A stretch of DNA of 64,000 bases from Deltaproteobacteria bacterium (GTDB lineage: Bacteria; Myxococcota_A; UBA796; CAJQPC01), in assembly GCA_016719515.1 (NCBI GenBank), contig JADJYZ010000037.1, positions 34,630-98,629 of the forward strand, read 5' to 3'. Of this stretch, positions 42,677 through 45,557 are shown piece after piece. The notes under the pieces were generated by a model that was given only the letters and a program-made list of their open reading frames with translations, did no database searches and was not told the DNA's origin. The position numbers and the translations under genes are program-made. The first letter of the stretch is position 1. Each line of letters begins with the position of its first letter.

Positions 42677-43708
42677 TCAGCACACCTCGTCGTAGAGGTT
42701 GGGCACGCCGGAGGCGCTCTTCACGAGCTGCTCAATCCGCTCTCGCAGCGCGGCGTTCTCGGCCAAGGTCGCCCGGGCCTTGTCTCGGCCTTGGCCGAGG
42801 CGCTCCTCACCGAAGGCGTACCAGGCCCCCGCCCGCTGCACGACGCCGTGGGTCTCGCCGAGATCCACCAGCTCGCCCAGGCGATCGACACCTTCGCCGT
42901 AGAGCAGGTCAAACTCTCCGCTGCGGAAGGGCGCGGCGAGCTTGTTCTTCACCACCTTGGCGGTGGTCTTGGCGCCCATGACCTTGTCGCCGACCTTGAT
43001 GCTGGCGCCGCGCCGGATGTCGATCCGCACCGAGGCGTAGTACTTCAGGGCGTTGCCGCCCGTCGTCACCTCGGAGGGGCCGAAGACCACGCCGATCTTC
43101 TGGCGGAGCTGGTTGATGAAGATCACCGTGCAGCGGGTGCGGGACACGACGCCGGTGAGCTTTCGCAGGGCCTTGGACATCATGCGGGCCTGGAGCCCCA
43201 CCTGCTGATCGCCCATCTGGCCCTCTAGCTCGACCTCGGGCACCAAGGCCGCCACGGAGTCGATGACGATGAGGTCTACGGCGCCGGAGCGGCACATCTG
43301 CTCGGCGATCTCCAAGCCCTGCTCACCGGAGTCGGGCTGGGAGACGAGGAGCTGGTCGAGGCGCACGCCGAGGTGCGCGGCGTACTTGGGATCCAGGGCG
43401 TGCTCGGCGTCGATGATCGCGGCGATGCCGCCCTGGGCCTGCACGGAGGCGATGGCGTGCAGGGCGAGGGTGGTCTTGCCGCTGGCCTCGGGGCCGTAGA
43501 TCTCGACCATACGCCCCCGGGGCAGGCCGCCGATGCCGAGCGCGATGTCGAGGCTCAACGAGCCCGTCGAGATGGGGACGCCGGTCTGCTCGGCGACGCT
43601 GCCGTCGAGGCGCATCACCGCGCCGGGGCCGTACTGCTTGTGGAGCGAGTTGAGCGCCGCGTCGAGGGCCTTGAGCTGGTCGGGGTGGTGGGTGGTCTGG
43701 GTCATCAT
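42677..43708 (-). CDS. recA: recombinase RecA
   Basis: Walker [13 protein letters not shown]; [13 protein letters not shown]; L1/L2 loops. Confidence 0.95.
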
Positions 43709-44034
43709 GGCTGTCTCCGTTGTCTGTGGGTGTTGTTGGTGTTGTTGGTTGGGTCACGAAGGGACGGCGCGAGGGCCGCCGTCGGGGGGCCGTCACCGCG
43801 AGGGCGACGGAGCTGGTAGAGGCAATCGGGCGCAGGCGGCGCGGCGTCGTCGGGGAGCGCCCGGCGGGCCTCCAGGCGCTCCCCTTCGTGGGGAGCCGGC
43901 GGCAGGCAGCGCAGCGGCAGCGTGATGAGCTGAGACTCGGCGAGCTCGATGGCGGCGACGTCACCGTCGATCTGGTCCACGACGCAGAGGGTCCAGGTCG
44001 CGGCGAAGGTGAGGCCCAAGGCGCGGGGGCTCAT
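43705..44034 (-). CDS. DUF3006-family small protein
   Basis: [39 protein letters not shown] matches the DUF3006 pattern; ATGA-type overlaps with comM upstream and recA downstream. Confidence 0.55.
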
Positions 44035-45557
44035 AGGCCCGCCTGGGCGTCGACGCTGTCTTGGGCGCGGAAGGCGGCGGCCTCGGCGACGTGCTCCACG
44101 TCTACCCGAGCCACGCCGTCGAGATCGGCGATGGTGCGGGCGACCTTGAGCACCCGGTCGCAGGCCCGGGCGGAGAGGCTGAGGCGCTCCATCGAGTCGC
44201 GGAGCAGGCGCAACCCCGCCGGGGTGGCCTGGGCGGCCTCGCGGCAGGCCGGGCCGTCGAGCATGGCGTTGTTGAAGATGGGGAGCGCCTTGTAGCGCTC
44301 GGTCTGGGCCCGGCGGGCGGAGATGACCCGGATACGCACCTGGGCGCTCGACTCGCGGCGGCGATCGGAGAAGAGCTCTTCGCTCTCCACGGGGTCTACC
44401 CGCACGCAGAGGTCGATGCGGTCAAGGAGCGGGCCGCTGAGCCGCTGGCGATAACGCTTGAGCGCTGAATCCCCGCAGCGACAGGGCTTGTTGGGGTGGC
44501 CCCAGAAGCCGCACTCGCAGGGGTTGGCCGCCGCGACGAGCATACATGAGGCGGGCAAGGTGACCGCGCCAGCGCTGCGGGCGATGACCACCTCGCGGCG
44601 CTCGAGGGGGCTGCGGAGCTGCTCCAGAGTGCCCCGGCTGAACTCGGGCAGCTCATCCAAGAAGAGCACGCCGTGGTGGGCCAAAGAGAGCTCACCGGGC
44701 CGTAAGCTCGCCCCGCCCAAGAGCCCGGCGGGGGAGATGGAGTGGTGGGGGCTCCGAAACGGGCGCTGCTCCAAGATCCCCACTTTCTCAGGGAGCAGGC
44801 CCGCGACGGAGTGAACTCGGGTGGTCTCGATGGCCTCCTCAAAGGTCATCGGCGGCAAGAGCCCAGGCAGGCGCGAGGCCAACATCGTCTTGCCGGAGCC
44901 CGGGGCCCCGATGAGCAAGAGGTTGTGCCCCCCGGCGGCGGCGATCTCCAGGGCCCGCCGAGCGAGGGCTTGGCCACGCACATCGGCGAGGTCGCCGGAG
45001 TGCGCGGGCAGGGGCGCGGCGACGAAGCTGGCCTTCTTGAGCGTGTCTTTGCCGTTGAGCCAATCGACCACCTCCGAGAGGTTGGTCGCCGAGAGCACGT
45101 TGAGGCCGGGCACCACGGCGCCTTGGCCCGCGCAGGTCTCGGGGAGGATCAAGGCGCGCACGCCCCGCTGCCGGGCCAGGAGCGCCAGCGGCAAGGCGCC
45201 GGGCACGTCGCGCAGGGCCCCGGTCAGCGAGAGCTCCCCCACGGCCATCACGCCGGCGAGGGAGTCCTCGGGCACAACCCCCGCCGCGGCGAGCACGCCC
45301 AAGGCGATGGGGAGGTCAAACGCCGTGCCGTCTTTGCGCACATCGGCGGGGGCGAGGTTGATGGTGACGCGCTGCTTGGGGAAGTCGAGCCCAGAGGCGA
45401 GGATCGCGCTGCGAACTCGCTCTGTGCTCTCTTTGACCGCGCTCGCAGGCAGGCCGACGACGGTGACGCGGGGGAGCCGACGAACCAGGTCTACCTCGAC
45501 CTGAACCTCGACGCCGTCCACGCCCTCTACCGCGCCCGCCATGACCGTGGTGGCCAT
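44031..45557 (-). CDS. comM: ComM/YifB-family Mg-chelatase-like AAA+ ATPase
   Basis: Lon-like N-domain followed by AAA+ (LLLIGAPGSGKTMLASRLPGLLPP); start reset to MATTVMAG (upstream 133 aa are wrong-frame-like). Confidence 0.9.
   Translation of the reverse strand: MATTVMAGAVEGVDGVEVQVEVDLVRRLPRVTVVGLPASAVKESTERVRSAILASGLDFPKQRVTINLAPADVRKDGTAFDLPIALGVLAAAGVVPEDSLAGVMAVGELSLTGALRDVPGALPLALLARQRGVRALILPETCAGQGAVVPGLNVLSATNLSEVVDWLNGKDTLKKASFVAAPLPAHSGDLADVRGQALARRALEIAAAGGHNLLLIGAPGSGKTMLASRLPGLLPPMTFEEAIETTRVHSVAGLLPEKVGILEQRPFRSPHHSISPAGLLGGASLRPGELSLAHHGVLFLDELPEFSRGTLEQLRSPLERREVVIARSAGAVTLPASCMLVAAANPCECGFWGHPNKPCRCGDSALKRYRQRLSGPLLDRIDLCVRVDPVESEELFSDRRRESSAQVRIRVISARRAQTERYKALPIFNNAMLDGPACREAAQATPAGLRLLRDSMERLSLSARACDRVLKVARTIADLDGVARVDVEHVAEAAAFRAQDSVDAQAGL

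Follow-up and report, generated by a model that had tools for sequence, protein, structure and literature searches.

We examined a 64 kb stretch of a Deltaproteobacteria assembly (GCA_016719515.1, contig JADJYZ010000037.1; the window, whose own positions are used as coordinates throughout) in which comM/yifB, a small open reading frame (ORF) and recA follow one another head to tail on the minus strand (Table 1). An original prediction, made from the letters of the window, had read the three genes as a comM-DUF3006-recA operon, and the gene order, and as a rule the overlaps between the genes, were found to be kept across the loci compared below. The G+C content of the window is about 70% and uniform along its length. 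A mobile element or genomic island was considered and rejected, on account of this uniform G+C and of the DAGK, HU and GTP cyclohydrolase II genes that a related locus, L135, shares with the window downstream of recA.

Table 1. Features of the comM-recA locus, in window positions.
Feature	Position	Strand	Remarks
Candidate sigma-54 (-24/-12) promoter	45596..45610	-	TGGCACgctccTTGC; -12 element ends 38 nt before comM ATG
comM/yifB, AAA+ Mg-chelatase-like hexameric helicase, 508 aa	44031..45557	-	TIGR00368 and Pfam
Small gene, 109 aa, divergent DUF3006-family protein	43705..44034	-	
Parts of the small protein			hydrophobic N-terminal extension (1-17), acidic five-stranded beta-barrel (~15-76), Pro/Arg-rich disordered tail
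ATGA overlap, comM stop / small-gene start	44031..44034	-	read from sequence
GGAG Shine-Dalgarno of recA	43715..43718	-	6 nt before recA ATG, within small-gene 3' end
ATGA overlap, small-gene stop / recA start	43705..43708	-	read from sequence
recA, 343 aa, canonical motifs all present	42677..43708	-	TIGR02012 and Pfam
Weak terminator-like hairpin, possible operon end	42545..42559	-	~118 nt downstream of recA; 5-bp stem

The mechanical ORF of comM reaches 45956, and its extension beyond 45557 is without a coding signature in codon-position G+C (G+C at third codon positions, GC3, is 0.90 for comM). This pattern places the beginning of comM coding near 45557, and the ComM proteins of relatives begin at the same MATTVMAG. 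The protein scored 535.2 bits against TIGR00368 (cut-off 362.4), with residues 9-497 aligned on profile positions 5-499, and matched three Pfam families above cut-off (ChlI, PF13541, 141 bits; Mg_chelatase, PF01078, 290 bits; Mg_chelatase_C, PF13335, 93 bits). Its translation contains Walker A (GAPGSGKT) and Walker B (LFLDE) motifs and an embedded Cys4 zinc-finger motif (CECGFWGHPNKPCRC). Judged by these matches the gene is a full-length ComM/YifB, for which helicase and branch-migration activity would be expected by family. The RecA protein scored 491.3 bits against TIGR02012 (cut-off 325.3) and matched Pfam RecA (410 bits) and RecA_C; Walker A/B and the L1/L2 DNA-binding loops were read intact from the translation, and identity to ordinary RecAs from many phyla was 60-63%. 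That the small ORF might be a frameshifted extension of ComM or RecA was rejected because ComM and RecA can each be aligned with their families over the full length.

In a genome of about 70% G+C a long ORF can be a chance product, and the coding status of the small ORF was therefore tested. Codons 1-75 have GC3 of 0.92 and GC2 (second positions) of 0.52, like genuine genes here, and the N-terminal extension is itself coding (GC3 1.0); over the last 35 codons the codon-position G+C is flat (0.66/0.69/0.69). Ratios of nonsynonymous to synonymous substitution (dN/dS) relative to loci L001 and L007, from related metagenome-assembled genomes (MAGs), were 0.24-0.41 for the small gene, 0.16-0.22 for comM and 0.10-0.16 for recA, and the indels of the small gene among relatives are all in frame. 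On these figures the small ORF codes for a protein and is subject to purifying selection, though of a somewhat relaxed kind.

The original prediction had assigned this small protein to DUF3006. Its match to the Pfam profile (PF11213) spans positions 2-41 of 67 and reaches 22.5 bits (E 1.3e-4), short of the gathering score (32.3), and an NCBIfam search of it gave no match. Similarly weak PF11213 matches were obtained for 7 of 9 close homologues. Exhaustive HMMER and profile searches tied the family to about 50 small proteins, most of which have a precomputed PF11213 match; these matches are strong for P0016, P0018 and P0021, orthologues that occupy the same position between comM and recA, and a further orthologue, MCK6516400.1, is annotated as a DUF3006 protein by NCBI. 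When the subfamily associated with comM and recA (A7) was aligned to canonical DUF3006 (A8) using hhalign, the probability was 98.4% (E 6e-15, 44 columns). What the small protein shares with DUF3006 is the motif VVD[QR]I[ED]G-x-A-x-E ... LP-x-G-x-REG[DE]-x-L in its N-terminal part. The helical third at the C-terminus of canonical DUF3006 (ARL..RL..RS region) remained unaligned in both hmmscan and hhalign of the small protein, which has in its place a Pro/Arg-rich tail and one extra strand. By these profile comparisons the small protein belongs to the DUF3006 superfamily as far as the first, N-terminal two thirds of the domain are concerned; the assignment held for the family, through the hhalign result and the matches of homologues, and did not hold for the single sequence, which stays under the Pfam threshold.

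The two ATGA overlaps and the 109-aa ORF of the original prediction proved exact in the sequence, which reads GGC CTA TGA GCC at 44034-44031 and CAG CCA TGA TGA CC at 43708-43705. The junctions were compared in 15 loci, window included. At the first junction, 13 of the 15 have a 4-nt overlap (ATGA or GTGA) between the comM stop and the start of the small gene; at the second, the end of the small gene runs 1-26 nt into recA in 13 of 15 (8 nt in L089). A single 4-nt overlap would be unremarkable; it is the conservation across loci that lifts these overlaps above chance. All 15 loci have a strong GGAG 6-9 nt ahead of the recA start, usually after an A/C-rich tract (CAACAACACCAACAAC in the window). 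The 3' end of the small gene thus serves at once as the translation-initiation region of recA, which accounts for its odd composition and its N/T/Q/R-rich tail. No Shine-Dalgarno comparable to that of recA precedes the small gene in the window sequence, so its translation probably depends upon ribosomes terminating on comM. From the conserved same-strand stop/start overlaps, translational coupling within the operon is likely, with dependence of downstream translation as its predicted consequence.

Short A/C-rich repeat units (ACCAACAAC, coding for TNN) are also present in the tail of the small gene, at 43720-43765 on the minus strand and at homologous positions in P0001-P0006. The repeat is directly upstream of the recA Shine-Dalgarno, its copy number differs in frame between close relatives, and it may tune recA translation.

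Further loci were reached via homologues of the small protein at rising distance, via relatives of RecA (L135, GCA_020632795.1; L136, GCA_040384145.1), and via a degenerate DNA-pattern scan of metagenomes (L108, L117, L120, L125, L130); 29 of the 36 matches of the scan were chance matches in other frames and 7 were genuine. The order comM-small gene-recA (the triad) was found at 16 distinct loci (the window, which equals L125 of the same species; L001-006; L007; L086; L087; L088, partial; L089-091; L092; L093/094; L095/096; L108; L117; L120; L130; L135; L136), across which identity is 44-92% for ComM and about 50-97% for RecA. Every member of the subfamily that could be located sits between comM and recA, and the arrangement was present in every relative examined. 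The flanks of the triad vary among loci and include an ABC transporter, an epimerase and convergent amidohydrolases; the order in the closest relatives is an MVP-like gene (for Major Vault Protein; divergent), comM, small gene, recA, hydrolase, GNAT, DAGK, HU and GTP cyclohydrolase II. The next gene beyond recA is convergent in L135 and L136, and the conserved unit, of exactly three genes, therefore stops at recA. 

In both L135 (5705-6004) and L136 (1760-2086) the small ORF is unannotated, and what appears as a "gap" of about 280 nt between comM and recA holds it, overlapping both neighbours. Since the gene caller missed the gene in at least two public MAGs, surveys based on proteins will undercount the family and the linkage is easily overlooked.

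As controls, 78 other comM loci from many phyla, mostly about 50% identical, were taken from a GTDB scan with ComM by exact peptide words, which missed intermediate relatives; none had recA within 6 kb. The linkage of comM with recA is confined to one uncultured, high-GC clade, whose MAGs are labelled variously Myxococcota, Alphaproteobacteria or Proteobacteria bacterium, and is no general association. Four DUF3006-like genes of other subfamilies sit elsewhere (L097, L098, L122, L133). In L097 (4825-5766; GCA_016792625.1, a Deltaproteobacteria MAG) a canonical DUF3006 gene (5001-5216) lies between two ComEA-like helix-hairpin-helix (HHH_3) genes of 52 and 133 aa, an arrangement by which, from gene content, DUF3006 would be associated independently for a second time with proteins of DNA handling or competence. 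In L133 (5187-6780; metagenome contig CEUO01061049.1, GC 0.45) a gene for the UV-damage endonuclease UvdE (194 bits) is followed, after about 400 nt, by a DUF3006-like gene encoding 73 aa with a hydrophobic N-terminus, below Pfam detection; L122 has an almost identical member of the family.

Alignment of the upstream regions of three relatives brought out a conserved cTGGCACGCTCCTTGCg, which ends 38 nt before the comM ATG and holds an exact sigma-54 consensus, TGGCAC-N5-TTGC. In the window the motif (TGGCACGCTCCTTGC, 45610-45596) points at comM, and it is kept in L001 and L007. There are three exact matches to GGCAC-N5-TTGC in the 64 kb, compared with 0.79 expected; all are intergenic and each faces a gene (comM, the divergent MVP-like gene and the GNAT gene). 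TGGCAY-N5-[T/G]TG[C/A/G] was found 43-56 nt upstream of the comM start in 7/7 triad lineages, the -24 TGGCAY being invariant in all seven, and a motif of this type occurred within 120 nt of comM at 0 of 76 non-triad loci. We consider the motif, with moderate confidence, a putative sigma-54-dependent promoter. The promoter scan of the minus strand between 41500 and 46100 gave no sigma-70-like promoter.

The original prediction had pointed to the region upstream of comM (45558-45915) as the place for a LexA box. None of eleven published box types (including those of E. coli, Cheo, alpha, M. xanthus, Bdellovibrio, Geobacter, cyanobacterial and Xanthomonas type) was present there, and the sigma-54-type motif was found in the region instead. 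Only weak matches were obtained (GAAC-N4-GTTC and alpha-type GTTC-N7-GTTC with one mismatch each, and a cyanobacterial type with two), and the one of them that was compared with relatives (GAACAGGGCTTC) was not conserved.

Several sigma-54-type promoter motifs cluster in this neighbourhood. The 733-aa product of the gene divergent from comM (45916-48117, plus strand) is a bacterial protein homologous to the Major Vault Protein of eukaryotes, with matches to MVP_shoulder (70 bits), Vault_3 (32 bits) and the Vault repeat (24 bits). At 45839-45853 (plus strand), 63 nt before the MVP-like ATG, is an inverted 15-mer (GGCACGCTCCTTGCG) identical to that of the comM promoter, and over its entire length the 5' leader of the MVP-like gene is close to 100% conserved in L001 and L007. 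The vault-like protein may on this evidence be co-regulated with the recombination operon, in this genus only; the other triad lineages have different genes upstream of comM. L007 contains, between its divergent promoters (~5790-5830), a perfect palindrome of 14 nt (TGACATCGATGTCA), possibly an enhancer at which an activator of the twin sigma-54 promoters binds; at the aligned position of the window and L001 there is only an element resembling a half-site, TGACAGG[G/C]CC. The third exact match (41581-41594, minus strand) is between the alpha/beta-hydrolase and GNAT acetyltransferase genes and is kept in relatives (L001, 12447-12460; L007, 9942-9955), and L135 has a GGCAC-N5-TTGC-type motif at 9485-9498, before a DAGK-like kinase gene.

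The small protein was modelled using AlphaFold2 with a 55-sequence alignment as input (9 near-identical sequences gave a predicted local distance difference test, pLDDT, of 47). Residues 1-80 were modelled with pLDDT 82.3 and a predicted template modelling score (pTM) of 0.68, and strands were placed at 15-23, 26-30, 36-40, 53-58 and 73-76. The protein is confidently predicted to fold as a five-stranded barrel like that of the oligonucleotide/oligosaccharide-binding (OB) proteins, a resemblance at the level of fold and not of family membership; Foldseek with the model found no PDB match at E <0.03. A hydrophobic N-terminal segment of 9-22 aa, often after a basic residue and sometimes with a Cys at its end, is present in all 14 triad members and absent from canonical DUF3006. 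The Pro/Arg-rich tail is net positive in most triad members (+1 to +11). Most invariant positions hold acidic residues (D20, E30, E50), and this, together with the acidic core described below, speaks against a classical OB face for binding single-stranded DNA; the acidic barrel fits a protein-binding module, or possibly a nucleic-acid mimic.

A function in recombination or competence is what we infer from the gene linkage. The locus is, in our view, rather probably a lineage-specific recombination operon, the middle gene of which encodes an accessory partner of ComM and/or RecA. One transcript would start from the sigma-54-type promoter 38 nt upstream of comM, its expression gated by an enhancer-binding activator instead of LexA/SOS. 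The small gene would be translated by termination-reinitiation from ComM, tying its amount to that of ComM, and recA would re-initiate efficiently at its own GGAG site. The small protein could then act as the accessory partner by, for example, recruiting or modulating the branch-migration helicase at RecA-made joints, a role comparable in logic to the DprA-ComM and RecA-RadA partnerships. More tentatively, and as no more than a speculative extension, the DUF3006-like barrel might be a recombination mediator not recognised before, physically bridging or regulating ComM and RecA and replacing or supplementing recruitment of the DprA type, in a module where the principal recA is sigma-54-activated by a developmental or environmental signal, not by DNA damage.

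Several observations weigh against an accessory partner under sigma-54 control. Gene order is the sole functional evidence that ties the small protein to ComM or RecA, and some DUF3006 genes lie in unrelated contexts (L098). The hydrophobic N-terminal extension resembles a signal peptide or anchor, and if it is one the small protein might be located outside the cytoplasm and so be separated from RecA. In 13/14 members the barrel core is acidic, with a net charge of -2 to -10. The -12 element reads TGC in 4/7 triad lineages and TGA or TGG in the other three, and neither an enhancer-binding (Sigma54_activat) protein nor rpoN was seen in the parts of the window scanned, which for the former comprised 27 ORFs. 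The LexA consensuses used are those of other groups and may not be those of the host lineage, so that an atypical box is possible.

The segment at the N-terminus, seen in 14/14 triad members and in no canonical DUF3006, together with the canonical gene between two ComEA-like HHH_3 genes in L097, leads to the alternative that the small protein is in the envelope (secreted, lipid-anchored or membrane-tethered), has a ComEA-like part in DNA uptake or a role outside recombination, and is co-expressed via a competence-type regulon. We hold this to be unlikely, since the hydrophobic stretch is short and leads straight into barrel strand 1, the strongly basic C-tail favours the cytoplasm, and the strict place between two cytoplasmic DNA enzymes, with stoichiometric coupling, suits a cytoplasmic partner better. 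The middle ORF could otherwise be mainly a translational coupler or leader, bringing ribosomes from comM to recA and keeping the recA ribosome-binding site unfolded, its peptide having no role in recombination. The conserved stop/start overlaps would agree with this, as would the last ~35 codons, which are flat in codon-position G+C, hold the recA GGAG and the A/C-rich tract, and vary by in-frame indels. The N-terminal ~60 residues, however, form a conserved, confidently folded domain that is kept by purifying selection (dN/dS 0.18-0.47) and is homologous to a family of stand-alone genes elsewhere, and a pure coupler needs no conserved fold; a role as coupler only is, on these grounds, distinctly improbable.

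The remaining alternative concerns regulation, namely an ordinary LexA-repressed SOS recA locus with two incidental upstream genes, in which the TGGCAC motif is the site of another regulator or has arisen by chance. It has in its favour that LexA controls recA in the majority of bacteria, recA2 of M. xanthus among them (PMC7029660), and that the GC of the -12 element is not kept in 3/7 lineages. The region 45558-45915 has no conserved box of the known types and the minus strand no sigma-70-like promoter over the interval scanned, while the -24/-12 match is exact in the clade of the window, is duplicated before the divergent gene, and separates 7/7 triad lineages from 0/76 controls; we give this explanation very little credence.

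ComM is a hexameric branch-migration helicase that acts on RecA-made joints and in model species must be recruited by a partner, DprA (10.1101/147660; PMC12012524; PMC11612176), and its activity or role in transformation is known only for the Vibrio, Acinetobacter, Legionella and Helicobacter proteins (PMC12012524; PMC11612176). The window has the same helicase family as Vibrio and Helicobacter (Lon-like domain, AAA+ and Mg_chelatase_C), and links ComM, RecA and a protein of partner size genetically. In those species recruitment is by the winged-helix tail of DprA, and comM and recA are not neighbours, whereas here the candidate partner is an unrelated DUF3006 barrel encoded between both genes. 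The competence-induced cinA-recA of Streptococcus pneumoniae (as cited in PMC11612176) and recA-recX likewise link recA tightly with an accessory gene and a non-SOS or specialised input; the partners CinA and RecX are unrelated, however, and in the window recA is last and the promoter looks like a sigma-54 promoter. In M. xanthus, recA1 and recA2 are each monocistronic with their own promoter (PMC7029660). Like recA1 (same source), the operon has no recognisable LexA box, in a lineage that is high-GC and possibly Myxococcota; unlike recA1 and recA2, which have no comM or DUF3006 gene upstream and no reported sigma-54 promoter, recA here is preceded by both genes and by the candidate promoter.

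Relative to DUF3006 (PF11213), the small protein has the extra hydrophobic N-terminal extension and the Pro/Arg-rich tail and lacks the helical C-terminal third. DinI is a small, acidic modulator of the RecA filament that is genetically tied to recA; it is alpha/beta, not a barrel, and has no sequence or fold relationship to the small protein, so the likeness would be one of functional analogy only. DUF3006 was not mentioned in the literature searched, and the papers and search results consulted contained no account of an operon joining comM with recA or of recA being driven by sigma-54. The locus is a recA operon with accessory genes, and what is new is the strictly linked, uncharacterised middle gene and the unusual type of candidate promoter.

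RecA accessory factors (RecX, DinI, DprA, RadA, ComM) set the time and place of recombination, and the delivery of ComM to RecA-made joints has been explained only recently and in few model species. The small protein, whose gene is fixed in place between comM and recA throughout a deep clade, offers a clear-cut, testable candidate for such a partner, and a new one. If it were one, it would provide the first functional handle on the DUF3006 family, other members of which are beside ComEA-like and UvdE genes. A sigma-54-driven recA, if real, would mean that an activator-gated switch replaces the SOS circuit for the central recombinase, an unusual design.

Downstream of recA the terminator scan gave hairpin matches no commoner than in shuffled sequence. 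The next gene (41708-42484, minus strand) encodes an alpha/beta-hydrolase-fold protein, described in the original prediction as having a degenerate catalytic motif and as lying where recX often sits. The first part agreed with what was found, the nucleophile position reading AHGLAV compared with AHDYGG in PDB 5w15, and the protein is probably non-catalytic or repurposed. The second part proved incidental: the gene is kept in the closest relatives only, and elsewhere the gene after recA differs or is convergent. No RecX-family gene was found directly downstream of recA in the window, the Pfam search there giving only weak Abhydrolase matches.

Elsewhere in the window, genes for cell division and translation (IF-2, NusA, FtsZ, Ddl, MurC) are located at 1.6-20 kb, and a 6S/SsrS RNA gene at 12894-13070 on the plus strand matched Rfam RF00013 at full length (64.6 bits), the sole Rfam family above gathering score in the window. 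Content of "myxobacterial" type was found at 58161-64000 (plus strand), 49314-51953 (minus strand) and 35533-38118 (minus strand), and comprises a modular polyketide synthase (KS-AT, DH-ER), a Ser/Thr protein kinase and a large protein with DUF1573/HYDIN-Ig/MopE repeats.

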